UHGV virus genome: UHGV-0079174
DNA: 12,456 bases
Reading direction: 5' to 3' (one strand)
Source of the DNA: a virus
Every line of letters begins with the position of its first letter. The first letter of the stretch is position 1. Of this stretch, positions 1 to 12,456 are shown piece after piece. The notes beneath the pieces are model-generated. The model did not search any database. It saw nothing but the letters and a program-made list of their open reading frames with translations, and had not been told where the DNA came from. A program made the position numbers and the translations under genes.

Positions 1-187
1 CATGTACCGGAACTTTAGGTTTTTTTCGTTGAGCGTCGCGAATAGCTTCACTGTGTGGACGTGCTGCATGAACCGGGCGGCTGTCTAAGATTAGCAAGGT
101 CTAAATACACCTCCAGTTTCAGATGGTTCCTAAAGGTGATGCTTGTGGTTATGATAGACAGAAAGATAAGACTTCCGAGGGTTAGCT

Positions 188-1021
188 ATGAGTGATGGGT
201 GGTTAGATTCTACTATGCAAGCAATAAACGATAGGATTAAAAGCCCATTATGGGGATATATCATTCTTGCATGGGTATGGTTCAACTGGCCTAACTTAGC
301 AATGCTCTTTATGAGTGATGCGCCTGTTAAGTTTCGAATAGATTATATACTATCTCAGGAATATTTTTACGCTCATTATCTGCTTGCTCCTGTCTTTTTT
401 GGAGGTGTGCTAGCTGTTATTACTCCTTATGCTCAATGGTTACTTTCTCTTGCTCAAAAATGGGCTACAGATAAACACAATGAAAATGTTTATCTTACAA
501 AGGAAAAAGAATACTTGGATTCAATCAGGTTAACGGGGTTAAAGGTTCGGGCTGCCAGAGAAGAAGAGAAAGAAAATGCTAAAATTGATGCTGATATTAA
601 AGCGGAAGTAGAGCGTGGTAAGCGTGAAGAGCTGGTCACAGAAGAGCTACAGACAGAGAAGAAACTGATTCAGAAAGAAATTAATAATTTAAAGCAGTTA
701 GTATCTAAAGAAAAACAAACCATTGAAAATATCGAGATAGAAAAAGAGAGACTACAGGATTTGATTGTTGCCTCACTTGAGGTAATGGATGATTTCTTTA
801 AAGTTGATAATAGCCATTCATTACAGCAATTGAAGAGTAGGGTAGAAGAACTTTTAACAGTTTCTGATATTGAAGCTTCTACCATACGTAACGCGCTACG
901 ACAAAAGAAAGAGCTAACTTCATCACAGACAATGAAAATGTTCGATATGGTAGAGGCTAAAATTAAAAAGGAAAAAGAAAAAGGTAATAATATAGAGTCG
1001 AATGAATTAATTAACCAATAA
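188..1021 (+). CDS. Hypothetical membrane protein: two N-terminal hydrophobic helices followed by a long charged coiled-coil-like C-terminal region
   Basis: 277-aa ORF from the track. ATG at 188 preceded by GAGGG (177-181). Hydrophobic segments WGYIILAWVWFNWPNLAMLF and HYLLAPVFFGGVLAVITPYAQWLLSLA, then an E/K-rich heptad-like sequence. No catalytic motif recognised. Confidence 0.6.
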   Translation: MSDGWLDSTMQAINDRIKSPLWGYIILAWVWFNWPNLAMLFMSDAPVKFRIDYILSQEYFYAHYLLAPVFFGGVLAVITPYAQWLLSLAQKWATDKHNENVYLTKEKEYLDSIRLTGLKVRAAREEEKENAKIDADIKAEVERGKREELVTEELQTEKKLIQKEINNLKQLVSKEKQTIENIEIEKERLQDLIVASLEVMDDFFKVDNSHSLQQLKSRVEELLTVSDIEASTIRNALRQKKELTSSQTMKMFDMVEAKIKKEKEKGNNIESNELINQ

Positions 1022-1061
1022 TGCTATGCCTGTAAATAACAGGACATAAACAGGTTAGTAC

Positions 1062-1309
1062 CTATGCAATTTAACGGTATTTTTCCAAGTATCTATGCAA
1101 TCCTACACAGATTCTATACAGTATCGACATAGCCCCTTTTTATCATAACTTATTGAAATATATAGAGAATCTGTAAATCCTCTTTTCAGGGTAAACTGTA
1201 TCGTGTTAGTCGTTCCTCTCTCGACACTACATACAGTGCTATATACAGGACTATATAACGGTGTCTATGCAGTTGGTCACTATCAATATTCCCTTAAAGT
1301 GACTATCAA
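1062..1309. repeat. Cluster of short direct repeats (iteron-like) in non-coding DNA
   Basis: CTATGCAAT at 1062-1070 and 1093-1101 (31 bp period); CTATGCAG at 1265-1272; GT(C/G)ACTATCAA at 1276-1286 and 1299-1309 (23 bp period). No ORF in the supplied track in this stretch. Confidence 0.4.
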
Positions 1310-1457
1310 GCTACTTAATAGTTTCCTATATGAAAGTTAGGAGGCGATAGTTATAGTTCCTTCGTAGTTCCCCTTAAAAAATCACTTAGAGACATCTTAA
1401 TCTATATGCAGATTTCACGTAGAACACGATTAGTGCGTAAAACAGCTATTATGTTAA

Positions 1458-1486
1458 AAACACACTGTGTTTATATCAGTACTGAT
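1458..1486. promoter_or_regulatory. Two adjacent palindromes, operator-like
   Basis: AAACACA-C-TGTGTTT (1458-1472, 7-bp arms) and a perfect 12-bp palindrome ATCAGTACTGAT (1475-1486), 2 bp apart. Confidence 0.3.
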
Positions 1487-1637
1487 TTATAAGGGTTTTG
1501 TGTATTGGCTGATAAGAGGCTATACAGCACCTTGAGAGCATGTCTTATAAGTCATTGACACATAAGGTCACAGAAGTTTGTAGCTGTTACAGAGAAAACT
1601 GGATAGGACTTCACAGAATTATAAAATGTTACAGCTA

Positions 1638-1665
1638 TTGATAGATGAAATCTTCTTGATAGATG
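1638..1665. repeat. Exact 10-bp direct repeat TTGATAGATG x2
   Basis: Copies at 1638-1647 and 1656-1665, 18 bp period, in non-coding DNA. Confidence 0.4.
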
Positions 1666-1916
1666 CTTTGAAGTGTGGTTAAGGTTTCTTGAGGTGGAGT
1701 TAACAGATGCCATGAAGAAAGTCAATAATTGGTTATAGATATTTTAACTGCTTTTGCAAAGGGGGGAGCTATATCGTGAATCTGGGGCACTTAACAGCCA
1801 TCAATTGAGTGTAGATATTTTTGAAGATTATCGGTGAAGGGGAATGTAGAGGGGTTACTACGATATTTATAAAAATTTTCAGACTCTGAAAAGTTACTGT
1901 ACAGATTTTATACAAA

Positions 1917-1940
1917 CTAAAAAGGACTCCCGAAAGAGTC
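1917..1940 (-). terminator. Candidate intrinsic terminator on the minus strand
   Basis: Stem GGACTC (1923-1928) / GAGTCC (1935-1940), 6-nt loop. On the minus strand the hairpin is followed by TTTTAGTTTGT. No T-tract follows it on the plus strand. Confidence 0.3.
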
Positions 1941-1975
1941 CCTATAAGTCGATTTTTAACGTGGCTACGACAATC

Positions 1976-2029
1976 CACCCATACCGCACCAAACCTTACC
2001 CCACCGAACCGCACCCTACACGACCTTAC
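1976..2029. repeat. C-rich (plus strand) / G-rich (minus strand) imperfect tandem repeat
   Basis: CCGCACC occurs twice and CCTTACC twice within about 55 bp (roughly CACC..ACCGCACC..CCTTACC repeated). Compositionally unlike the flanking AT-rich DNA. Confidence 0.3.
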
Positions 2030-2550
2030 CTCGCCGGACACTGCCATAGAGAGTGTGCTTGGTTGCTTTGGAAGTAAACCTAGTACAGTAAGCCATTATA
2101 CATATCGAGATAGTAACGTCAAGAAACTTTTAACAGGAGGGGTTCCTATGGTCACATATTCCCTCTCTTCCCACTAAGTAAGTCTTAGCAGCACCTAAGC
2201 AACAATTGACTAACAGGTTCGGTAGAGTCTATCTCATAGGTCAACTTCATAAACTCAGAGTTAAGTTACCTTGAAAGATTCTACCAAGAAACTACACAGG
2301 TGTTATTTAGTCTGACTGTGAAGGGATATTTAACGGGAGGAGAGATACGATATAACCCGAAGGGAGAGTATCATCTTAACAATTATCTTAAGAATAAAAC
2401 TGAAAAGTTCTTAACAGATGACTACCTAGAAAGAAGGGAACGATAAGACCAGAGGTAGTGACCTTGTTAAACAGGCTGTTTCAAAGCTCTTAAGAGTCTG
2501 TTAAGTAAGGGCTATGTGAACAATCTTACCATTTTGTCAATGCTTTTGTC

Positions 2551-2596
2551 TTTAGCAAAAAGTGCTAAACTTAACAAAAAGCACTAAATGCTAAAG
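2551..2596. promoter_or_regulatory. Repeat and inverted-repeat cluster just upstream of the methyltransferase gene
   Basis: TTTAGCA (2551-2557) / TGCTAAA (2563-2569) inverted repeat; 15-mers CAAAAAGTGCTAAAC (2556-2570) and CAAAAAGCACTAAAT (2575-2589); AAATGCTAAAG at 2586-2596 recurs at 3716-3726, and a related AAATGCTA lies in the promoter spacer at 4181-4188. Confidence 0.3.
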
Positions 2597-2634
2597 AGAC
2601 GATTAAGAAATATACTAAGAGGGGCGCTTCGCTT

Positions 2635-3303
2635 GTGTCACATCCAATAATCAATGTTGGTCGTTATCATGGTGGTTCTGATGACTGGCGTACACCGTAT
2701 CGTTTATTTCATAATCTGCATCGTGAGTTTAACTTCAGTCTAGATGGCGCTGCAACTGAGCATGACGCATTGTTGCCACGGTTCACCGATGATATTCACA
2801 ATCAATCATGGGTTGGTGAACGGGTCTTCGTTAACCCGCCGTTTAGCATGGCTGAAAAGTTCCTCTTAAAAGCCCCTGAAGCTGATGTGTGTGTATGTCT
2901 GGTTCCGCTCAGGTCAAAGACAACTTACTGGCTTCGGTGTGTATATACAAACCCCTTCCTGCATGAGATTCGAACGTTGCACCGAGCAGTCAAATACCTT
3001 CCACCAGCAGGAAAGAGAGGTGTTGTAGTGCGCTCACCGTTTCCAAGTTGCGTTTTGATATACAGGAACACACCCCGCAAACCGAAAGTTGAAGTTACCC
3101 AGACAATCTATTGTGGTGACACAATGCTTTTACTTGCCGTGGTTAACAGGGGTGGTTTACGTGGAAGACCTCATATGCACAATGCACAGACGCTTGACAG
3201 GTTGATTAAAATGTATGACCAAGGGCAACCCATCAAGAGCATCGCAGAATCGCTAAGAATGCCTCTAAGCACCACTTACAGGATTGTTCAAAGGTTGGGC
3301 TGA
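2635..3303 (+). CDS. Phage Dam-family DNA N6-adenine methyltransferase with C-terminal helix-turn-helix extension
   Basis: 222-aa ORF, GTG start 9 nt after AAGAGGGG. N-terminal DDWRTP, then VFVNPPFS (N/DPPY/F-type catalytic motif) and LVPLRSKTTYW...SPFPS, the pattern of phage Dam-type orphan methyltransferases. The last ~40 aa (GQPIKSIAESLRMPLSTTYRIVQRLG) read as a resolvase/Hin-type HTH. Family assignment is from motif memory, not a search. Confidence 0.7.
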   Translation: MSHPIINVGRYHGGSDDWRTPYRLFHNLHREFNFSLDGAATEHDALLPRFTDDIHNQSWVGERVFVNPPFSMAEKFLLKAPEADVCVCLVPLRSKTTYWLRCVYTNPFLHEIRTLHRAVKYLPPAGKRGVVVRSPFPSCVLIYRNTPRKPKVEVTQTIYCGDTMLLLAVVNRGGLRGRPHMHNAQTLDRLIKMYDQGQPIKSIAESLRMPLSTTYRIVQRLG

Positions 3304-3350
3304 AGTTCTCATATAGAGCACTGATTACGAGAATGTTAAAGATGCGATTT

Positions 3351-3541
3351 CCCCTTTCTGGGGTTATTCGCTTTTTACTGGAAGGGTTATTTTACAGAGG
3401 TTTTTCAAACCCCCTCAATAATAGAAACGAGCAACAAACGAAGAGCGAGAAATAAAAATATTGAGACTGGTGAACGGGGGTCTGTAAAGATTGTTTAAGA
3501 AGTCGGTTAAGAAGGTGGCTCTCCCTGTCTGGGGTTATCGC
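3351..3541. repeat. Direct repeat CCCT..TCTGGGGTTAT(T)CGC x2, about 171 bp apart
   Basis: CCCCTTTCTGGGGTTATTCGC (3351-3371) and CTCCCTGTCTGGGGTTATCGCC (3522-3541), in DNA with no ORF in the supplied track. Confidence 0.35.
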
Positions 3542-3768
3542 CTTGTGTCTTAGTGAGTCTTGAAAGTTCTCTGTGAAGAGTCTTGTCAGTCCTTTATATT
3601 GGCTAATTACAACTCATTGAAAAAATAAGCATTTTTAGAAATTACTGTCAGAGGGGTGAATACTTGATAGATACAGCTTTCCGGTTCTGTCAAGCTATTT
3701 ATTAATGGATAGCACAAAATGCTAAAGATACCCCTATACCATCACGTACAGGGGGTTTTGAAGGGAGT

Positions 3769-4026
3769 TTAACGGGGTTCTGTGTGGTCGTTATCCTTAA
3801 GGTCAAGCGTCCATGTACGACCGAACAGTTTAAAGACAACAAGCACTCTGACGAGGACGTAGCGAAGTAGCAGACCTGCAATCAGCCCAACACCTCCACC
3901 AGCCCATACATCAGGTGACCCCAGCTCAGGAGGGAGATTTACCATTAGTTTTCCTTGTAAGACGCTCTCAATCGCATTCTGACACAAAAAAGTACCTGAC
4001 CTTATATGTTGACCTGAAGAGGCCAT
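3769..4026 (-). CDS. Hypothetical small protein with one hydrophobic segment; coding status uncertain
   Basis: 85-aa minus-strand ORF with hydrophobic stretch GGGVGLIAGLLLRYVLVRVLVVF. A candidate minus-strand promoter lies upstream (4126-4155). Weak ribosome-binding site. Confidence 0.3.
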   Translation of the reverse strand: MASSGQHIRSGTFLCQNAIESVLQGKLMVNLPPELGSPDVWAGGGVGLIAGLLLRYVLVRVLVVFKLFGRTWTLDLKDNDHTEPR

Positions 4027-4125
4027 TTAACTCGTTACAGAGCGATTGAAGAGGTCTGTGTGCAATGCAATAACCATGCGGCCATTCTCATAGCCACGCC
4101 TCATATTTTACTCTCCCATAAACCC

Positions 4126-4155
4126 ATTATACCACAGATGTTAATAAAATGTTAA
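4126..4155 (-). promoter_or_regulatory. Candidate sigma70-type promoter on the minus strand, divergent from the plus-strand promoter
   Basis: On the minus strand: -35 TTAACA (plus 4150-4155), 18-bp spacer, -10 TATAAT (plus 4126-4131). Confidence 0.3.
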
Positions 4156-4161
4156 AAATGC

Positions 4162-4190
4162 TTGACATTAGTCTTTGAAAATGCTAGTAT
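4162..4190 (+). promoter_or_regulatory. Sigma70-type promoter (first of two matching promoters)
   Basis: -35 TTGACA (4162-4167), 17-bp spacer, -10 TAGTAT (4185-4190), followed by TGTATATATAGG (4191-4202), which is identical to the 12-mer after the second promoter. First gene starts 51 nt downstream. Confidence 0.55.
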
Positions 4191-4240
4191 TGTATATATA
4201 GGTTAACACAGAATTAACAATTATAAGGACTAGCTTATGA

Positions 4241-4795
4241 ATGAGAGACGCAGAATTTAGAGCGATGCTTCAGGCATCGAGACAACGTAACAGATACAAC
4301 TCCTACAGCTACACAGACACCCCCACCAGCTACGAATTACCCAAGCTCACCCAAAAAGAACGCAAAGGCATTGACGAAGTAATTCGGGCAATTACACCGA
4401 GGGAACGTTATATGCCAACCAGAAAGAGCACGAAGAACAGCATCAAAAATTATTTGAATAACTTCGACAGCTATGAGCAACTACCAAGTAAGCTTGATGA
4501 TATTTTCATTGGATTCTGTAGAAGTGAAGGCCACCCGAAATACAACAAAAAACTATTTTATCTTCTAAAGAATCTTGACGAAATTAACGCATCCAGCGTG
4601 ACAAATCGTCTTCAGCGTCAAGCAACCAGACTTAGCTACGAATTACCAACCGATGCCTATTGTGCATTGCTTGCTGTAATGTGTGCAAAGCTAATTGGTA
4701 TTGTTGAACATCATATTGCCGTTGGTAATATTGAGCCAATGGAAAACGAGCAACCAGACTTTGAGTTTGACCCGTATATTTTGGAGGAATTTTAA
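4241..4795 (+). CDS. Hypothetical protein with acidic C-terminal tail
   Basis: 184-aa ORF, ATG at 4241 preceded by TAAGGA. C-terminal EPMENEQPDFEFDPYILEEF. No recognisable domain. Confidence 0.55.
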   Translation: MRDAEFRAMLQASRQRNRYNSYSYTDTPTSYELPKLTQKERKGIDEVIRAITPRERYMPTRKSTKNSIKNYLNNFDSYEQLPSKLDDIFIGFCRSEGHPKYNKKLFYLLKNLDEINASSVTNRLQRQATRLSYELPTDAYCALLAVMCAKLIGIVEHHIAVGNIEPMENEQPDFEFDPYILEEF

Positions 4796-4796
4796 A

Positions 4797-5078
4797 ATGG
4801 GAAATAAACACACATTAACCAGAGTTACAAAGACAGCCTTTGAAGAGCTTAACCGAATCAAAAACATTACAGGTCTGCCACACTCAGCAGTGATGAAGCT
4901 TGCAATTAACCGTGATATTAACGAACAAGATTTGCTTAATAGTCGCTTAGAGGCAGCAAGACACCATATCAGGATTAAGCAAGATGACCTTGATAGTCTG
5001 AAATATTTAAATGCTTTTGGACTGGATTTAGCAAGGTTACTAAGCATCAAAATTCACAAATTAGCGATGGAGGTTTAA
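4797..5078 (+). CDS. Small protein, possibly a ribbon-helix-helix DNA-binding protein
   Basis: ATG at 4797 sits 9 nt after GGAGG (4783-4787) and 1 nt after the upstream stop; the track's 4695 start would overlap the upstream gene by 100 nt. N-terminus KHTLTRVTKTAFEELNRIKNITGLPHSAVMKLAI resembles a strand-helix-helix pattern. Fold call is tentative. Confidence 0.5.
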   Translation: MGNKHTLTRVTKTAFEELNRIKNITGLPHSAVMKLAINRDINEQDLLNSRLEAARHHIRIKQDDLDSLKYLNAFGLDLARLLSIKIHKLAMEV

Positions 5079-5464
5079 TGTATGACTTTTATAAACATCG
5101 TGACCATTTGGTAAGATTTGACGGTAAAGTCTGGAAAGACGTAACACAAACCAATAAACCCAAGTTTACCCACCAGCAATTAGCCTCAAGATTTGATATC
5201 TGGACTGAAGCACAAAAAGATAATGGTGATTTCGAGTTTATCAGAGGTTTTGATTATTCTTACGAAGACGACCTTAAAGACGCCATTAAATTAATTGAGA
5301 ACTTCAACTCTATTAAAAATGGTGACAAGCACAAAGCCAACGGTAACAGATACGATAAAGATTTAATCATTGATGCAATCACCAAAGGACAATCACAAAG
5401 TTATATTTCTGAGAAATACGGCTTATCACGTAGTCAATACTACAAGATTAAAGCGTCTGTGTAA
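5078..5464 (+). CDS. Hypothetical protein with C-terminal helix-turn-helix
   Basis: 128-aa ORF. Its ATG overlaps the upstream stop (TAATG at 5076-5080), indicating translational coupling. C-terminal DAITKGQSQSYISEKYGLSRSQYYKIK is the same resolvase-type HTH flavour as the methyltransferase C-terminus. Confidence 0.6.
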   Translation: MYDFYKHRDHLVRFDGKVWKDVTQTNKPKFTHQQLASRFDIWTEAQKDNGDFEFIRGFDYSYEDDLKDAIKLIENFNSIKNGDKHKANGNRYDKDLIIDAITKGQSQSYISEKYGLSRSQYYKIKASV

Positions 5465-5476
5465 GTCTGTGAGAAT

Positions 5477-5523
5477 GAGTGAGACTCAAAGATGAGCTAC
5501 CCTATTACTAAGGTGTCTCACTC
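5477..5523. promoter_or_regulatory. 9-bp perfect inverted repeat GAGTGAGAC / GTCTCACTC separated by 29 bp
   Basis: Arms at 5477-5485 and 5515-5523, between two genes. No T-tract follows, so it is more likely a binding site or RNA structure than a simple terminator. Confidence 0.3.
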
Positions 5524-5602
5524 CCTCTGTAACCCGCATGGTTACTGGCCTCAGGATGGCTATTTTGGCAGATTTAAGATGTGTTTTTAGAGGATTTTAA
5601 AA

Positions 5603-5926
5603 ATGAATAATTTCCCGCTACAGATTTTCGTTGATAGCGACACCGCTCTGATGATTCAGGCTTTCAGTGATTCCGGTGTATCAATTGACTTTGATAAATT
5701 ACTAAAGCTAATGGCTGATAACTCAGAAACAATTGAAGATTTTATTCAGGAAATTGAAACTGGTGACCCACGTTTTATGTTTCCCGTTACCGACTCAAAC
5801 ATGAAGCGCCTTATTATTGAGGAAACTAACCGATACAGCGTTAGCCCTGAAAAATATCTCAAGGCGGCTATAGTAATTTTGTACGCTGACAATGTTTTGG
5901 TTACGGATTCGAAGGTGGTGCATTAA
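5603..5926 (+). CDS. Hypothetical acidic protein
   Basis: 107-aa ORF, ATG at 5603 preceded by AGAGGA (5589-5594). Confidence 0.55.
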   Translation: MNNFPLQIFVDSDTALMIQAFSDSGVSIDFDKLLKLMADNSETIEDFIQEIETGDPRFMFPVTDSNMKRLIIEETNRYSVSPEKYLKAAIVILYADNVLVTDSKVVH

Positions 5927-5991
5927 TGGAATTGGTGATTATCTGTTTTGTATTGATTGGTATGATTGCAGGTGCATCTATTAAAGTATAA
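5926..5991 (+). CDS. Candidate 21-aa hydrophobic micro-protein MELVIICFVLIGMIAGASIKV
   Basis: ATG overlaps the upstream stop (TAATG at 5924-5928). Almost entirely hydrophobic, one predicted transmembrane helix. Below the ORF-track size threshold. Confidence 0.3.
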   Translation: MELVIICFVLIGMIAGASIKV

Positions 5992-6015
5992 ATGTTACCA
6001 ATCTGTTAAAAGCTG

Positions 6016-6044
6016 TTGACAAATAACCTTGAGCATGACATAAT
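6016..6044 (+). promoter_or_regulatory. Sigma70-type promoter (second of two matching promoters)
   Basis: -35 TTGACA (6016-6021), 17-bp spacer, -10 CATAAT (6039-6044), followed by TGTATATATAGG (6045-6056). Confidence 0.55.
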
Positions 6045-6146
6045 TGTATATATAGGGAGAGCAATTCTCCTTGAATTAAAATATTAATCATTCTACATCG
6101 ATGATAACTATATTCTGAGTTGGAAAGGTGCAATGCTTTTCGCTAC

Positions 6147-6175
6147 ATGACCTCTTATATAACTTGAGAGGTCAT
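6147..6175 (+). promoter_or_regulatory. Hairpin in the long leader (9-bp stem ATGACCTCT / AGAGGTCAT, 11-nt loop)
   Basis: Perfect 9-bp inverted repeat about 100 nt downstream of the predicted start site. No T-tract follows. Confidence 0.35.
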
Positions 6176-6234
6176 CTCGAAAAGTCTTTGTTCATTCATT
6201 GAATCCTTTAGATGTTCTTTAATTTCTTCACCTT

Positions 6235-6270
6235 AGCCCTTTATAGCGTTTTAGTTATCTAGGGCTTTTT
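6235..6270 (+). terminator. Terminator-like hairpin inside the leader (possible attenuator)
   Basis: Stem AGCCCT (6235-6240) / AGGGCT (6261-6266), 20-nt loop, then TTTT (6267-6270). Lies about 190-220 nt downstream of the promoter and about 110 nt before the first gene. The long loop weakens the call. Confidence 0.3.
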
Positions 6271-6378
6271 CAGCTTTTAAAAAGCATACATGGCAAACGC
6301 TTTTAAGTCTCTTCTAAGTTCGTAGGCTGTCAGGTGTGCTTTTTAAAAACTGAATATTACTTAGAAGAGGAAAATGAA

Positions 6379-7086
6379 ATGGAAAATCTATATATTAGCG
6401 GTAGAAAGGTTGATAGCTTCGGTGACTGGTCGCCACAGACTGAACATCCAGCTATCACTATTCAGCGTAAAGAACACGATGAAAGAATTAAGCTTGAGCA
6501 ATCGTTAAAGATGTCACCAAAGGTAATTTCCTTTGTGTCTCCTGAGCCTCAAGAAATGCCAGATATCTGCAAAAGTGAAGCACTATTTAATCTTGAGCGT
6601 GAATATTACCCACAGTTAAAAGCACAGCGTATTAAACTTGATGACGCTTACAGCAAAGTTACCCTGATGCAATCAGCTATTGAGCCGTCAGAATTTGAGA
6701 TTCAGGATGAATTGTCACAGAAACCATTTGTCTATTACAAATATGAAGACAATGATGGTTTTGGTACTTTTCCTGAGAATATCCCAGACGTGATTAATAA
6801 TCTTTCTGACGGATATCGAATTGTGAAGATGGTTAAGGCATCAAGAGGTGCTGGTCAGTTTATTTACATGACTAATAAGAGCGATGAAGAACTCGCTGAA
6901 CTTGCTAGACAGAACATCTTGGCATCACGTAACAAGCAGCTTGATAGTGCTAAGTTGTATCTCTCAAGAGAGCTTCAGGCTATGAAAGAGCTTGTTAGTG
7001 AATATGAGTCGCAGAAGAAGGTTGCTATGCAGGCTGATATTGAGCAGCTTACGAAGATTTCTAGCAAATATGCAAAAGCTATTTGA
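6379..7086 (+). CDS. Hypothetical protein with C-terminal coiled-coil-like region
   Basis: In-frame ATG at 6379 preceded by GAGGAAAA (6367-6374); the track's GTG at 6334 has no ribosome-binding site. 235 aa from 6379. No recognisable domain. Confidence 0.55.
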   Translation: MENLYISGRKVDSFGDWSPQTEHPAITIQRKEHDERIKLEQSLKMSPKVISFVSPEPQEMPDICKSEALFNLEREYYPQLKAQRIKLDDAYSKVTLMQSAIEPSEFEIQDELSQKPFVYYKYEDNDGFGTFPENIPDVINNLSDGYRIVKMVKASRGAGQFIYMTNKSDEELAELARQNILASRNKQLDSAKLYLSRELQAMKELVSEYESQKKVAMQADIEQLTKISSKYAKAI

Positions 7087-7094
7087 GGTGATTA

Positions 7095-7403
7095 ATGAGT
7101 GATTTAACAGAACGCGATAAAAGAATTAAAGGGGTGATGGAACCTTTTGAAGATAGGTTCAATGAAATTAAAACGACTCTTGGTGATATTCAGGAGGTCA
7201 CTGAATATCTTATTGGTCGTATGGACGAAAAGCCTCTTGCCGAACTAAAGTTTGAGGGTCGAGATGATTTAACCTTCCTTATTAGAGACCTCAAGCGAGA
7301 TGTAGGACGGCTTGAATCTATCTTTGATAAAGCTGGTCTCTCAATACGTTACGAAATTGTAAAGAATGAACGCGGTGTAAAGTGCATTCACTTCTTGGAG
7401 TGA
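7095..7403 (+). CDS. Hypothetical small acidic protein
   Basis: 102-aa ORF. Extended Shine-Dalgarno GAGGTGAT (7085-7092) before ATG 7095. N-terminus MSDLTER. Confidence 0.55.
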   Translation: MSDLTERDKRIKGVMEPFEDRFNEIKTTLGDIQEVTEYLIGRMDEKPLAELKFEGRDDLTFLIRDLKRDVGRLESIFDKAGLSIRYEIVKNERGVKCIHFLE

Positions 7404-7425
7404 AAATTGAATTATGAGGTGATGA

Positions 7426-7632
7426 ATGATTGATTTAACAGAACGCTATGAACTCATCAGGGCAATTAGCGAACGATTGAAAGAACAACCCAACAAACCA
7501 AAACGAATCAAATCATCCACCTCTAAGCAAAATAACAGAATCAGAAGAATCGCTAAATGGTGTCTTGATAAATTACCAAGTGATTGTCAGATTGTCGGTG
7601 AAGATGGCAATTATTATCTTGTCAGACATTAA
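7426..7632 (+). CDS. Hypothetical small basic protein
   Basis: 68-aa ORF. GAGGTGAT (7416-7423) before ATG 7426. N-terminus MIDLTER. Its first ~37 bp are near-identical to the start region of the gene at 7095. Confidence 0.5.
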   Translation: MIDLTERYELIRAISERLKEQPNKPKRIKSSTSKQNNRIRRIAKWCLDKLPSDCQIVGEDGNYYLVRH

Positions 7633-7658
7633 AAAGAATTGGTTGGGTAAAAATCAAC

Positions 7659-7699
7659 GGGAGAGATTATCGAGTGACATCGGTAGCTCTCCCTTTTTT
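7659..7699 (+). terminator. Candidate intrinsic terminator
   Basis: Stem GGGAGAG (7659-7665) / CTCTCCC (7687-7693) followed by TTTTTT (7694-7699). The 21-nt loop is long for a canonical terminator. Confidence 0.4.
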
Positions 7700-7814
7700 G
7701 TATATGTGCTACGTGATGATTCGGATAAGAATTATCCTCATGAAATCTGTAAAGCTAATACCCACACTGAAAAATAGAATTTACGTACAACACGCTTAAA
7801 GAGGTGAAACATGA

Positions 7815-9863
7815 ATGAGCAAATTCACAGTTGATAGTTTTATCGTTGAACTAGGCTTCAATGAGAACGTTATTAAAGGTCTGCAAAAAGTTGAAAAGGC
7901 AGCTTTGCAGTCAGCACAAAGAATTGAACGTAATTTGAATAGAGCGTTTAAGGTCGATACCAAGCAACTTGACAGTAATTTAACGGCTTCTTTAAAGTCA
8001 ATGGAAGGGAAGATTAATAAGACCTTTGACCGTCTGGAAGCTAGAGCAAAAAATACTAAAGCTTTCCGTTTCACAAGTCAGGTTAATGACGCTATTAATC
8101 CTCCAAAACAACCAAGACAGCCACGAATTAGCGGAAACAGAGCAATCACAGCAGCTTATTCAGCTAATATGAGCAAGCTGAAAGGTCTTAACCCAATTGT
8201 CGAGAAATACATTAAGAGTCAGTTTTACGCATTAAGTAGTAAAGCTGGTCAGATGGATAACACCAAGTTTAATGAAGCCCTCGCTAAACTAAATTCAAGT
8301 GTACGAGAAGCAATTGCTAAAGCCAGAGGTCATACATCCACCAGCATTAACGGTGACAGAGCAGCTAGCAGTCTTGATAGTCTGTCTTCAGCAGCAGTTA
8401 AAACAGCAGGTGCATTTATCAGCTTTCAGGCTGTACTATCCGCTTATCAGCGAGTAATGGAAGTTGGCCTTCAACGTGCATCATCGGAAAGAAGTATTGA
8501 TTTCGTATTCGGTGACCAAAGTACACAGGTTAAAAAGTTCATTCAAGATTTAACTCAAATTACTGGTATGGACACAACCGAAACACAAGCACAATTTGCT
8601 TCATTTGGTGCATCTGCAACGACTACGATGGGTCTTGAAGGGTCAGAAGAGTTATTTAAAAACCTTACAGGTTATGCTCGTTTAATGGGTCGTTCAGATG
8701 AGCAGATTCAAAGAGCATTAACCGCAGTGTCACAGATGGCCTCTAAGGGTCAGGTGATGGCTGAGGAGTTGAAGGGGCAATTATCTGAAGCTTTGCCGGG
8801 TGCTACTCAGGCATTTGCAAAGGCTTTAGGTCTGACTGAAAAACAACTTTTCGATAAGATGAAAAATGGTGATGTTAAAGCCTCTGATGCACTTCCTAAG
8901 TTTGCTAAAGAACTTGGTGCACAGATTAATTCAAGAGGTGGCTGGAAAGCTATTCAGGACTCTACGCAGACAATGTTAGGGAACTTAAAGAATACCTGGA
9001 ATAACTCACTAACGGATATTTTCAGAGGTTCTGAAAATGGTCTGCAAGATTTTACACGAAGCCTAACAACGCTTTTAAACAGTTTAGGTGGAAGTGGTAA
9101 AAGTCTTGGTGAATCTCTTGGTAGCTTGATGACTGATATGTCGCATGGTGTGGATAGCCTGACCGATATCAGTTACAGAGTGAGAGCTTTCTTTGATGAG
9201 GTGACATTGGCTTACCGTGGTTTAACCGATGAGCAAAAGAAAGTAGTTGATGCTTTAGGTTCTGGCTTGATTAATAGTTTAAAAGTCTTGGCTGGTGTTA
9301 TTGCTGTAAATAAAGTTGTTGGTGTAACCAGAAGTATTTACGGGCTTATGACTGCTATCACAAGATTAGGTCAGGTCGCTGATACAACAGCGGATAACGT
9401 GAATAGAAAGAACGGGAAACCATCAAGGTTTAATCTTGGGAATATGCTATTAGCTGGTAGTGCTATCTATGCAGGTTATGAGAGATTAGCTTCTACGCCT
9501 GAACGAATGGAAGCACAAGCTAAATTACCAGAGCTGGCTAAAGAGTCTGGACTTAAGCCAGTATTTACTATGGACGATGTGAAAGGTTGGTTTAATAGTG
9601 CTGCTATGAATCTTGCTAACTTCCAGCATCCAGAATTAATCACCATGAGACAAGATGCGGCATTAACGAATACGGATATCCAAAGCCTGAGAGATGAAAT
9701 TAGTGCTTTGAGCAAACGTATTCAGGAGCCTGTGAAAGTTTCACTTGGTGGTGAAGTTGCCATTAAACCAGATGAAACCAGCTTTATGACCTTTAGCAGT
9801 AATATCTACGACCAATACGCAGAAGCTACGCTATTAAGTTCATCATTCCCAGAAGATGATTGA
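7815..9863 (+). CDS. Tape-measure-like protein (phage tail length tape-measure domain)
   Basis: 682-aa ORF, AAGAGGTGA before ATG 7815. Central segment KGQVMAEELKGQLSEALPGATQAFAKALGLTEKQLFDKMKNGDVKASDALPKFAKELGAQ matches the conserved tape-measure domain pattern from memory. A/S/G/L-rich helical composition with internal hydrophobic segments. Confidence 0.6.
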   Translation: MSKFTVDSFIVELGFNENVIKGLQKVEKAALQSAQRIERNLNRAFKVDTKQLDSNLTASLKSMEGKINKTFDRLEARAKNTKAFRFTSQVNDAINPPKQPRQPRISGNRAITAAYSANMSKLKGLNPIVEKYIKSQFYALSSKAGQMDNTKFNEALAKLNSSVREAIAKARGHTSTSINGDRAASSLDSLSSAAVKTAGAFISFQAVLSAYQRVMEVGLQRASSERSIDFVFGDQSTQVKKFIQDLTQITGMDTTETQAQFASFGASATTTMGLEGSEELFKNLTGYARLMGRSDEQIQRALTAVSQMASKGQVMAEELKGQLSEALPGATQAFAKALGLTEKQLFDKMKNGDVKASDALPKFAKELGAQINSRGGWKAIQDSTQTMLGNLKNTWNNSLTDIFRGSENGLQDFTRSLTTLLNSLGGSGKSLGESLGSLMTDMSHGVDSLTDISYRVRAFFDEVTLAYRGLTDEQKKVVDALGSGLINSLKVLAGVIAVNKVVGVTRSIYGLMTAITRLGQVADTTADNVNRKNGKPSRFNLGNMLLAGSAIYAGYERLASTPERMEAQAKLPELAKESGLKPVFTMDDVKGWFNSAAMNLANFQHPELITMRQDAALTNTDIQSLRDEISALSKRIQEPVKVSLGGEVAIKPDETSFMTFSSNIYDQYAEATLLSSSFPEDD

Positions 9864-9875
9864 TAATAGTCGAAT

Positions 9876-9930
9876 GCTACGTGAAATCTCCTGAACAGAT
9901 ATACCCACCAAAAATTATTTTTCACGTAGC
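9876..9930. promoter_or_regulatory. 11-bp perfect inverted repeat GCTACGTGAAA / TTTCACGTAGC separated by 33 bp
   Basis: Arms at 9876-9886 and 9920-9930, between the tape-measure-like gene and the next gene. TTTCACGTAG also occurs at 1413-1422. Confidence 0.35.
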
Positions 9931-10020
9931 TCACGCTTAACAGATAAAACACTTAAATATCAAAGGCTTGGTTAAAAATGATTAAAATACACTAAGTCTT
10001 TGAAATCAAAGGAGAATATA

Positions 10021-10794
10021 ATGATTTACACTAATCAACTTCGTTACAGTGGCAAAGATGGTATCTATTTCCACTTAAGAGATAATGTAGATGCCTTCTT
10101 AACCTTATCAGCAACTGAAAACATGGAATTTGACAGCCCTATGCAGGTGACTACACAGAACATGCAATCAGGGCAAACCGTAACAGATAACGTGCAAAGA
10201 GCACCCAGAACAATCACTATTAGTGGTGTCGTTGTAGTTGGCTATGAAGGAAGCTTATTATTAACTCGTCAGGGTCAATTAGTAGAAAATTTCATCGACA
10301 CTCTTGAAAGCTGGCGTGACCAGAAGCAGATTATTTCTGTCATCTGTCGAGACGGTATCAAAATTGATGATTCCATTATTACGAGTTTTAAAGCCTCTAA
10401 AGATGTTGGAATTTCAAATGGTCTAAGAATCCAGCTAACTTTTCAGGAAATTAACTTCAAAGCCATTGTGGGTCAGACTGATATCTCTGCTGCAACTGGA
10501 AAGACCGCTACCACAAATGATGGTGGTGCTACTTCTAAGAAAAATACGGGTAACACTACGACAAGTCTAGGTAATGGTATGTTGATGTGTCAGGAGCTAT
10601 ATAATCGCTCTACGAGTGAACTCACTAATGAGCAACTTCAAGCCCGTATCAATTGTGGTAGAAGTGTCAAAGTTGAGAACGGAAAAAGCACCTTCTCAGA
10701 TGCCGCTAATGAGCAAGCTTCGAAAGTGCTTAGTAATGCTGGTACAGGTAGTACTTTGAAGAAATTTTCTGTAAATCCTAACAAGCGATACTGA
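10021..10794 (+). CDS. Hypothetical protein, possibly tail-associated by position
   Basis: ATG at 10021 sits 6 nt after AAGGAG (10009-10014); the track's TTG at 10000 is less likely. 257 aa from 10021. C-terminal third is T/G/N/S-rich low complexity. Function is inferred only from lying immediately after the tape-measure-like gene. Confidence 0.5.
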
Positions 10795-10808
10795 CGATAG
10801 AATCTCAA

Positions 10809-12332
10809 CTATATGATAACCTCATCAACATCTATTAAACCCCTCTCAGTGACTTCAGAAAGCGACTGTATAGCCTCTGTAACGTCCTCTGAGGGGTTTT
10901 CTGTTATTGATAGGTCAATTACCTTACCGTTGTGAAAACTTACTTTACAGCGACGTTTAGCAGTATTTAAAACGACCTCTTTAACAGCACTTTTGATTAT
11001 CAGTTGTGCTTCAATCCTTCCCGCCTTTGTAGTCAAGTCACAATCAGACAAACAACCAACATCAATAGATTTAAGGCGTTGTGTCTCCTTCTCGATATCC
11101 GCATCAACCTGTGATAGCTCACCTTTTAACTGCTTTAGTTTGATGGTAATAGCTGACAAATCTTCAATTTCAAGTGATAGCTGTACCAGCTTTTCAATAT
11201 TGCTTGAGATGTGTTCACGGTGTAGCTTCAGCGTATCTATGGTATTCGTCATATCGCTATCAAATCGGTCAAGACGAGATAGCAGGGTAAGTAATGTACC
11301 ATCAGTTTGCTTACGTGAAAGTCCTTTAGCACTACAACGGTTTTCATTACGAAGGGGACAACGATAAATCCCGCTTCTTGTATCGCTAAAGCCTGTGATA
11401 ATCAAAGCATGACCACATTCAGAACAACGGATAACACCTTTGAAAAGATTCACAGCCATTGGCTTATCTGAAGCAGGTTTTCTACCGTAACGAGAATATG
11501 ATAGTTGTTGAACTTTGTAGAATGTTGTTTCATCTATAATTGCAGGATAATAACCAGCTATCTCCTCACAGCCTTTAGGTGTGAAGTAACCAATTACAGA
11601 GCGATTTTTCAGAAGGTCTTGTACTGAGGTTTGACCAAATGAACCCGCTTTATATTGGTTAAGCGTCTGGTGACCTTCATCATTAAGAGTCCTGACAATC
11701 TCCCAGATAGACTTACCCTCTAACCGTAGCTGAAAGCACCTCTTCACAGTCTCCACTTTCTCAGGGATTACAGAGAAGCTTTTACGGTCATCATTAAGCT
11801 TAAGCCATGCAGGACAACGTTTAGAAATCTTGATACCTTCAGAGATGAGTTCTTTTTTACGGTTCCATGCAGCTTGTATACGCTCAGACTTCCTCAAACT
11901 CTCCTCATGCGACCGCTGCATTATCAGAATGCTTTTAATCAGAGCTAACGGGTCTTTAAGAGATTCTCGTGTGTAATGTTCACCATCGGACAAGGTGACC
12001 ACATCTACACCAGAGCGAAGAATGTTTCTGAGTAGCTCACTTGCTTGGTCTACATCTTGACGTGACAGACGGTCAAGAGATTCTATCAAGAGCGTATCAC
12101 CAGCTTTAACAAGCCCTTTCTCGATAGCGGTTAAAAAGTCACCTAAGCCACCTTTCAAGTGCTTACCAGTGAACCCACTCACCCCCAAATCACGGAAGGA
12201 TAAATCTTGGTCAAGGTAGTACTCAGGATGAGCCTTAAGCCAGTCATTAACCATCTTAGACTGTCTGCGTAGTGAGTCGCCTTTGGCTTGTCGCTCAGAA
12301 CTGAATCTGATGTAGCTGATTACACGTTTCAT
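10809..12332 (-). CDS. Large serine recombinase (probable integrase of the element)
   Basis: 507-aa ORF. N-terminal resolvase-type catalytic domain with YIRFSSERQ (nucleophile-serine motif, compare YIRVSTEEQ), a Cys-rich zinc-ribbon-like segment CSECGH...YRCPLRNENRC, and a C-terminal coiled-coil region. This is the domain order of phage-type large serine integrases. Confidence 0.85.
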   Translation of the reverse strand: MKRVISYIRFSSERQAKGDSLRRQSKMVNDWLKAHPEYYLDQDLSFRDLGVSGFTGKHLKGGLGDFLTAIEKGLVKAGDTLLIESLDRLSRQDVDQASELLRNILRSGVDVVTLSDGEHYTRESLKDPLALIKSILIMQRSHEESLRKSERIQAAWNRKKELISEGIKISKRCPAWLKLNDDRKSFSVIPEKVETVKRCFQLRLEGKSIWEIVRTLNDEGHQTLNQYKAGSFGQTSVQDLLKNRSVIGYFTPKGCEEIAGYYPAIIDETTFYKVQQLSYSRYGRKPASDKPMAVNLFKGVIRCSECGHALIITGFSDTRSGIYRCPLRNENRCSAKGLSRKQTDGTLLTLLSRLDRFDSDMTNTIDTLKLHREHISSNIEKLVQLSLEIEDLSAITIKLKQLKGELSQVDADIEKETQRLKSIDVGCLSDCDLTTKAGRIEAQLIIKSAVKEVVLNTAKRRCKVSFHNGKVIDLSITENPSEDVTEAIQSLSEVTERGLIDVDEVII

Positions 12333-12361
12333 TCTTTACCACCATAAAAACTAATAGCGCG

Positions 12362-12390
12362 ATTGTATCGCTTTAGGTGGTGTATTTAAA
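12362..12390 (-). promoter_or_regulatory. Candidate promoter for the recombinase gene
   Basis: On the minus strand: -35 TTTAAA (plus 12385-12390), 17-bp spacer, -10 TACAAT (plus 12362-12367). The -10 overlaps the palindrome GCGAT-TGT-ATCGC (12359-12371). Confidence 0.25.
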
Positions 12391-12456
12391 CGTGTCTGAT
12401 GAAAATCACCCGATTAACGCCGCGCTGATGTAAACCGCGATTAAGCGTTTGTTCCT

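Follow-up and report, generated by a model that had tools for sequence, protein, structure and literature searches.

A yecE island of Escherichia coli with a tape measure gene and a tail-tube initiator gene is a candidate satellite of Felix O1-like phages

The PLE of Vibrio cholerae, satellites of the virulent myophage ICP1, encode a tail assembly chaperone (TAC), a tape measure protein (TMP) and the hub protein BhuB (PMC12987554). Particles of PLE carry shorter, chimeric tails from which the TMP and BhuB of ICP1 are excluded, and transduction needs the satellite's own TMP; at the protein level satellite and helper are 20% identical for TMP, 20% for TAC and 41% for BhuB (PMC12987554). Here we analysed a stretch of 12,456 nucleotides, UHGV virus genome UHGV-0079174 (the window, whose coordinates are used throughout), which contains an island encoding a TMP and a tail-tube initiator (TI). 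Integrative islands of the same family, 11-12 kb long, occur in Escherichia and Citrobacter. From comparison of its genes with those of phages we lean towards the view that it is a satellite of virulent Felix O1-like myophages (Ounavirinae) and would assemble chimeric tails, like PLE.

The likeness to PLE, which here is one of genes only, lies in a small island, a virulent myophage as the proposed helper, and a TMP shorter than that of the helper together with one baseplate-proximal protein, the rest of the tail being absent. PLE integrate with a large serine recombinase. The host genus and the helper family differ, however, and no RepA_N initiator, TAC or capsid-remodelling gene was recognised among the open reading frames (ORFs) of the island. 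The second protein of the island is TI, a Dit-like ring protein, whereas that of PLE is a hub, and the TI gene contains very recent conversion tracts from the putative helper with up to 98% DNA identity. Host and gene content, rather than a comparison of protein sequences, set the island apart from PLE.

P4, a satellite of P2, is about 11.6 kb long and obtains all virion proteins from its helper, with which it shares an identical cos site and to which its late promoters respond. Its integrase is of the tyrosine type, it has a primase-helicase replicon of its own and the capsid-size protein Sid, and it encodes no tail protein. Neither the tyrosine integrase nor the primase-helicase nor Sid of P4 was found in the present island, which in contrast does encode tail proteins.

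Putative satellites with a TMP gene, a Dit-like gene and a convergent integrase at one end have been reported from E. coli itself (Barth et al. 2023, NAR Genom Bioinform, PMC10448857). The host, the lack of most tail genes and the architecture of this end (TMP, then a Dit-like 'phage baseplate protein', then the convergent integrase) are shared with the island described here. However, BLASTP gave no match (E <0.01) between the protein sets of the thrW island of strain 503440 (L004) and this island. The islands of Barth et al. also encode a major capsid protein, a decoration protein and an initiator of the RepA_N type, all absent from this island, and they mostly have a tyrosine integrase and lie beside tRNA genes, whereas this island has a serine recombinase and lies in yecE. 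Strain 503440 holds both kinds of island, and its yecE locus differs from the locus in the table of Barth et al. In the literature searched we found no description of the present family, which occupies yecE and the neighbourhood of tonB, or of any Felix O1 satellite, although coverage was limited and an earlier description may exist. The family is thus undescribed to the extent of that search; satellites with a partial tail module are already known as a kind.

Tail genes, a non-coding cassette and their phage counterparts

The first-pass annotation, made from the letters alone, had called the 682-aa product of the ATG-started gene at 7815-9863 (plus strand) tape-measure-like, and had named a lack of tape-measure homology on profile search as an outcome that would refute its reading. 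Profile searches identified a true TMP. The protein scored above the thresholds of Pfam TMP_3 (64.3 bits, cut-off 41) and TIGR02675 (tape_meas_nterm; 54.5 bits, cut-off 21.35), matched 12 PHROG tape-measure families (best phrog_4036, E 3e-84) and aligned with the solved tape measure gp17 of phage Bas63 (9ndy_F, E 3e-69). Among 50,697 phage records, full-length matches came from Felix O1-like phages only, with Felixounavirus as the best. The island TMP is 60 residues shorter than the phage protein (682 versus 742) and 29% identical to it overall, and this identity is unevenly spread. Conservation covers the first 40-45 residues, with 77% identity over the first 40, and the C-terminal LLSSSxPE is kept, the other parts being 6-30% identical. 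In the DNA, identity to phage is 74-83% over the first ~135 nt, and two sister islands reach 97-100% over the last 28-30 nt. In Bas63 the last 25 residues of the TMP touch the hub and the spike (PMC12609058). Across the island family the TMP ranges from 682 to 710 aa, and no extra activity was detected in it.

A single gene, at 10021-10794 (plus strand), lies between the TMP gene and the recombinase gene, as the first-pass annotation had it and as the ORF map confirms. Read from the ATG at 10021, which follows an AGGAG ribosome-binding site, its product has 257 aa; the longest mechanical ORF begins at a TTG at 10000 and gives 264 aa. The protein is a Dit-like TI. It exceeded the Pfam Dit_like (PF21821) threshold (73.4 bits versus 24.2) and matched phrog_3721 (E 2e-137) and the tube initiator gp018 of Bas63 (9ndy_A, E 2e-128), to which it is ~96% identical over the first ~190 residues and ~40% identical over the last 65. 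Identity to the Felixounavirus homologue is ~82% for the whole protein, and over 535 bp (10045-10579) the DNA is 92-95% identical to that of more than 200 Felix O1-like virulent myophages (Felixounavirus). The best matches in the same phage records, above 60% protein identity, belong to Felix O1-like phages (Ounavirinae and their relatives with Erwinia and Pectobacterium as hosts). The near-identity to Felixounavirus gp18 is a property of the tube-like domain. In alignment columns 201-240 the protein is 30% identical to phage and 77% identical among islands, which marks the C-terminal segment as island-specific. The TI of Bas63 forms a hexamer on the trimeric hub and starts the tube, and its C-terminal extension of ~100 residues threads the baseplate (PMC12609058).

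The order TMP then TI is that of Felixounavirus HMD-P10, in which the two genes abut within a complete tail and baseplate operon. Phage Bas63 (PDB 9NDY; PMC12609058) likewise has the direct homologues gp17 and gp18 in the same order and abutting inside a full tail and baseplate operon, whereas the island pair is separated by a 157-bp spacer with island motifs and is followed by the integrase. By these alignments, the only virion genes recognised in the island are TMP and TI, which are specific homologues of the adjacent Felixounavirus genes gp17 and gp18. The regions predicted to contact other phage parts stay phage-like, namely the first 40 residues of the TMP, its hub-docking C-terminus and the ring domain of TI. 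The body of the TMP and the C-terminal extension of TI are, as judged from the same alignments, island-specific.

The DNA identity of TI to Felixounavirus is a mosaic. It reaches 93-98% over nt 61-480 of the gene in this window and in one sister island (L006), and the high-identity tract is restricted to nt 301-480 in four other islands. The TI of a further island (L009) has no such tract and is ~73% identical throughout, which we regard as the ancestral type. In every variant compared the C-terminal third is of the island type. The different tracts in different islands indicate repeated, independent gene conversion from infecting phages, and hence repeated co-residence of island and phage DNA. 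Among island variants dN/dS (the ratio of nonsynonymous to synonymous divergence) is 0.17-0.41 for TMP and 0.07-0.18 for TI, with synonymous divergence of up to more than 2. Low ratios over such large divergence show that both genes are maintained rather than decaying.

The genetic link to the putative helper consists of the TI DNA, the TMP ends and a second helper-like segment, a non-coding array cassette. This small RNA (sRNA)-like cassette (1908-2122, minus strand) comprises a promoter from 2122 to 2095, a (GGTNN)x14 array from 2048 to 1978, a conserved leader and a terminator from 1943 to 1922. The promoter is near-consensus (TTGACG, a 17-nt spacer and the extended -10 element TGTATAAT), the terminator is intrinsic with a UUCG loop, and the predicted sRNA-like unit would be ~175 nt long; both sites come from a promoter and terminator scan of the window that returned no more sites than shuffled sequences did. 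Over positions 1948-2048 the cassette shares 75-80% identity with an unannotated intergenic stretch that lies beside the DNA ligase gene in Felixounavirus, Suspvirus and Mooglevirus, and the match is restricted to Ounavirinae phages. Common to the cassette and the phages are the conserved leader and, after it, ~14 pentanucleotide-periodic NNACC repeats (GGTNN on the minus strand). The phages hold one or two such arrays, each with leader and hairpin, between the DNA ligase gene and the next gene (L010, 3424-3826; L011-L014, ~524-1100; L025, 380-510). We found no annotation or explanation of these phage arrays, each of which could be an origin, a signal for packaging, an R-loop element or an RNA that binds protein.

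Within the island family the cassette is swappable. Three islands have it at 100% identity while differing by 5-6% in the flanks, and unrelated cassettes replace it in others. It may act as an RNA mimic or antisense RNA, an origin mimic or a packaging-site mimic. The alternative cassette of two islands (L006 and L009) gave 43-bp marginal matches to T5-like phages, which we set aside as not interpretable.

Both tail genes are preceded by the same island-specific motif, ACGTANNNCACGNTTA. One copy (7784-7799, plus strand) ends 15 nt ahead of the TMP start codon. A second (9925-9940) lies in the TMP-TI spacer, where together with an inverted pair of TTTCACGTAG (9877-9886 and 9920-9929) it makes up the segment 9877-9940. 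A third copy is found at 1417-1432 in an ORF-poor region. All island variants have kept the motif, none of the phage loci examined contains it, and in one variant (L019) TMP and TI have traded their upstream cassettes. The shared motif and the swapped cassettes suggest that the TMP and TI promoters are co-regulated.

Boundaries, excision and distribution of the island

The window is E. coli chromosome, matching strains MS20645 and FDAARGOS_1252 at 100%. Relative to the window, FDAARGOS_1252 (L001) has a 1-nt insertion in non-coding DNA between 3303 and 4241, after which its coordinate equals the window position plus 8001. The island splits the host gene yecE. Alignment to the intact K-12 gene places the junctions at 88/89 and 12401/12402 with a 2-nt overlap, so that attB reads GGCTGTCT-AA-AATCACCC. 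The attL crossover AA lies at 87-88, with the 3' fragment of yecE to its left and K-12 yecE aligning through 88; the attR crossover AA lies at 12402-12403, with yecE continuing on the right by the same alignment. The island body thus spans 89-12401 and would close to a circle of 12,315 bp with one copy of the AA core. Other E. coli genomes share the insertion point.

The reconstructed attP is symmetric. Its left arm (GGTGGTGTATTTAAAC, 12376-12391) and right arm (GTCTAAATACACCTCC, 99-114) form a 16-nt imperfect inverted repeat (14/16 matches), each arm exactly 10 nt from the 2-bp AA core. A 2-bp AA crossover between symmetric, imperfect arms, with no long direct repeats, is the signature of a serine integrase. 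Such an enzyme is encoded at 10809-12332 on the minus strand, a large serine recombinase of 507 aa with all three Pfam domains (Resolvase, Recombinase and Zn_ribbon_recom) over threshold and a match to phrog_95. Its gene converges on TI across a gap of 14 bp (10795-10808), as previously noted.

Annotation beyond the edges of the window found host DNA on the left (the yecE 3' fragment, yecN and cmoA) and, on the right, the remainder of yecE, followed in FDAARGOS_1252 by an unrelated lambdoid prophage that has a tyrosine integrase of its own. Host DNA on both flanks means that the whole 12.3-kb element lies inside the window. This leaves no place for a full tail module elsewhere in the element, and the truncated module suspected in the first-pass annotation is indeed confined to TMP and TI. 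The lambdoid prophage (20797-28457 of L001) is also inserted in yecE, at another position, so that one gene holds two unrelated mobile elements; some strains, those of the sister islands L005 and L006, have the island alone. Matches of at least 99% to 'Stx phage' records were rejected as relatives, since they merely reflect the yecE flank contained in prophage records.

A metagenome contig supports excision of a relative in nature. Contig ERZ1090866 NODE-760 (L022; 11,473 bp), located with a degenerate attP pattern, runs from the integrase through the exact predicted attP of the L006 type into the left end of the island, and yecE is absent. The attP lies at 8502-8560 of the reverse complement, and the contig holds a near-complete sister island whose TMP has 707 aa and whose left end carries a small resolvase as cargo. 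Passage through attP in the absence of yecE implies that an excised circle or a tandem form exists in nature.

TMP/TI-like DNA is present in 483 of 5426 complete E. coli genomes (~9%), 190 of which carry at least 80% of the block of TMP, TI and recombinase. Three sister islands (L005-L007) occupy the yecE site with unchanged gene order. Two further E. coli islands (L008 and L009) lie between yciI and tonB and have the same architecture but another large serine recombinase. Relatives also occur in E. albertii and in Citrobacter, where that of Citrobacter sp. ANG330 (L016) lies at tonB; its TMP is interrupted by an opposite-strand inserted element with two ORFs. The 11-12 kb architecture with its TMP-TI-recombinase end is conserved among variants at both chromosomal sites as well as in Citrobacter.

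Felix O1-like phages are virulent and are not known to carry integrases. The virulence of these kin phages, the recurrence of an intact architecture at two sites and in Citrobacter, and purifying selection leave the idea of a defective prophage, offered earlier as one option, without support.

A chimeric-tail model and its alternatives

The other earlier option, a satellite that borrows a helper's tail, is favoured by the discrete excisable island, by the kinship of TMP and TI to the Felix O1-like pair and by a partial tail module resembling that of PLE. 'Borrows' is imprecise, as the island probably substitutes its own versions for two parts of the helper's tail and borrows the rest. Once a Felix O1-like phage infects the cell, the island would excise, possibly with a directionality factor supplied by the phage, as PLE do. 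Its TMP and TI would be expressed from the two promoter regions that share the island-specific motif, and would enter helper tail assembly on the helper hub in place of gp17 and gp18. Tape measures scale at ~1.5 Å per residue, and a difference of 60 residues predicts chimeric tails ~9 nm shorter than those of the helper. The same reasoning from residues to tail length has been applied to PLE (PMC12987554). Chimeric tails would serve particles carrying island DNA, and helper tail assembly, or helper yield, would probably be reduced. The cassette at 1908-2122 would be the sole candidate for a cis or RNA element acting in replication or packaging. A tentative and rather doubtful extension of this model is that the family represents a minimal class of satellite, in which two structural proteins would be re-matched to helpers by gene conversion, a swappable cassette mimicking the (GGTNN)n array would act in replication, packaging or interference, and no capsid, terminase or replication gene of its own would be carried.

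Several observations weigh against a satellite of Felix O1-like phages. Induction by the helper, packaging and transduction of the island are all steps that we infer from sequence. No capsid, terminase or further tail gene was found in the window with Pfam, PHROGs or NCBIfam, and profile and structure searches recognised no replication initiator, primase, helicase, small terminase or capsid-size gene among the island ORFs. No TAC was identified upstream of TMP, where the 102-aa and 68-aa ORFs gave no useful BLASTP match to Felixounavirus chaperones, although remote homology is possible. A packaging route is also hard to see. Felixounavirus Pr103Blw packages via 581-bp direct terminal repeats, and a 12.3-kb island compares with a helper genome of 86-88 kb bearing such repeats (PMC8303462). 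The junction in the metagenome contig shows an excised or tandem form and says nothing of packaging, and the attP junction of the allele in this window was absent from the viral and metagenome contigs searched. Relatives in IMG/VR gave no packaging evidence, being two integrated copies of the yecE type and two divergent or partial ones. In several lineages, finally, TMP and/or the recombinase is split by IS2, IS100 or ISEc12 or by an internal stop codon (for example CP025881, CP085188 and AP026783; L007, 8386-10434). With TMP broken in many genomes, the module is dispensable for the host.

The best-surviving alternative, which we nevertheless consider unlikely, is that the island is never packaged and serves in defence. 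Its TMP and TI would act as dominant-negative subunits that drive Felix O1-type tails into dead-end assembly and so protect the population, and the island would spread by other routes. Conservation of the interfaces suits such a 'poison subunit' equally well, and phage-like interfaces joined to an island-specific TI C-terminus and TMP body are just what it would require. The lack of recognised packaging, capsid and replication genes fits, as do the variable left-end cargo, which recalls defence-carrying elements, and the frequency of the family in E. coli. PLE11 also blocks helper tail assembly, through Rta (PMC12987554). Yet PADLOC matched no defence system except an orphan methylase, and every characterised satellite-encoded TMP serves transduction of the satellite (PMC12987554). 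Precise excision and a helper-like non-coding cassette, moreover, look made for mobilisation. The two life styles are compatible, and PLE does both.

A second alternative keeps the satellite and changes its partner. The helper could be a phage other than Felix O1-like, such as a temperate phage with a related tail, and the identity of TI could come from a shared gene pool. Only ~29% identity between the TMP body and Felixounavirus TMPs would agree with this, as would the ~73% DNA identity of the ancestral-type TI, and any phage collection is finite. We regard this as improbable, since the best TI matches and the only full-length TMP matches in the 50,697 records are Felix O1-like, the DNA tracts of 92-98% identity with differing end points require recent co-residence with Felixounavirus DNA, and the non-coding cassette matches Ounavirinae only. 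Least probable of all is an ordinary integrative element or remnant that acquired two tail genes by chance recombination and gives them no role in tails; most other island genes are without known function, TMP is disrupted by insertion sequences or stop codons in some copies and tape measure proteins can carry extra activities (none detected here), but the TMP-TI-recombinase end is kept in every variant at two sites and in Citrobacter, selection has been purifying over large synonymous divergence, several independent phage conversion tracts are confined to the tube-like domain of TI, the hub-contacting TMP termini are selectively conserved, and the island holds no further remnants of structural genes.

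If the island is indeed a satellite of Felix O1-like phages, the chimeric-tail strategy of the cholera PLE would recur in E. coli and Citrobacter against another family of virulent myophages. Felix O1-like phages are used for typing and biocontrol of Salmonella and E. coli, and islands whose TMP/TI-like DNA occurs in ~9% of complete E. coli genomes could alter how well Felix O1-type phages perform in these uses and in therapy. The system should be tractable, as the island measures 12 kb, helpers such as Bas63 infect K-12 and the structure of the helper tail has been solved, and the island could serve to study how tape measure and tube initiator are selected in tail assembly. The mosaic conversion tracts would stand as a record of recombination between satellite and helper. 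The phage-derived non-coding array, for which we found no explanation in the phages either, may point to an origin, to a signal for packaging or to a regulatory RNA.

Other genes and non-coding DNA of the island

The att-proximal end carries a gene for a 277-aa protein (188-1021, plus strand) with weak matches to phrog_13369 and phrog_4780, families without assigned function. Sister islands have a 225-aa protein or a small resolvase at this position, and differing genes at the same place fit accessory or defence cargo. At 2635-3303 (plus strand) lies a gene for a DNA N6-adenine methyltransferase, a partial Dam domain (Pfam Dam, 9.7e-14; phrog_111) fused to a C-terminal helix-turn-helix (HTH; HTH_7, 1e-5). 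The Dam-type domain covers the first 109 of 169 profile positions, and the fusion to a resolvase-type HTH is unusual and kept in many island variants. PADLOC, run on the window proteins, returned an orphan methyltransferase model (7e-10) and otherwise chance-level matches only.

Around the two plus-strand genes at the left end, ~2.5 kb of ORF-poor DNA (1022-2634 and 3304-4240) holds no convincing ORF and is conserved at 74-95% among variants. Words resembling CTTAACAG are frequent there. The enrichment of CTTAACAG (43 found versus 14 expected) counts for less because coding DNA of phages is likewise enriched in it, about 2-fold. Scans of the window with Rfam and for tRNAs and tandem repeats gave nothing decisive.

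The genes that follow, all on the plus strand, are largely without family matches. A 184-aa protein (4241-4795) has no significant match and is found in all island variants. Next to it, the 93-aa product of 4797-5078 has no family match and keeps its position among variants; from its sequence pattern it is a possible ribbon-helix-helix DNA-binding protein. The 128-aa protein encoded at 5078-5464 may have a C-terminal HTH (HTH_28, E 0.003, below threshold), and in some variants an HNH endonuclease gene and a 66-aa gene stand in its place. A 107-aa protein (5603-5926) is conserved among variants.

The conserved 235-aa protein encoded at 6379-7086 carries the PGAP label 'transposase' and has no Pfam, PHROG or PADLOC match. 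It has 3117 homologues, of which those listed are near-identical, carry no domain and come nearly all from Escherichia or Shigella (one is labelled Salmonella). Its AF2 model, of medium confidence, shows a long helical hairpin and a small beta domain (pLDDT 70.6), for which Foldseek searches of PDB and BFVD returned generic coiled-coil matches only (E >0.009). With no support from family, homologues or fold, we rejected the label.

Two small genes separate it from TMP. The 102-aa gene (7095-7403) occurs in this island alone among the variants compared, and its start region repeats that of the next gene. The latter (7426-7632), directly upstream of TMP and followed by a terminator-like hairpin, encodes a conserved 68-aa protein; a chaperone role was considered and rejected, the protein being basic, unlike a chaperone. 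The repetition is a 38-bp direct repeat (D2; 7084-7121 versus 7415-7452, 89% identical) that spans the ribosome-binding site and first codons of both genes, whose products begin MSDLTER and MIDLTER, respectively.

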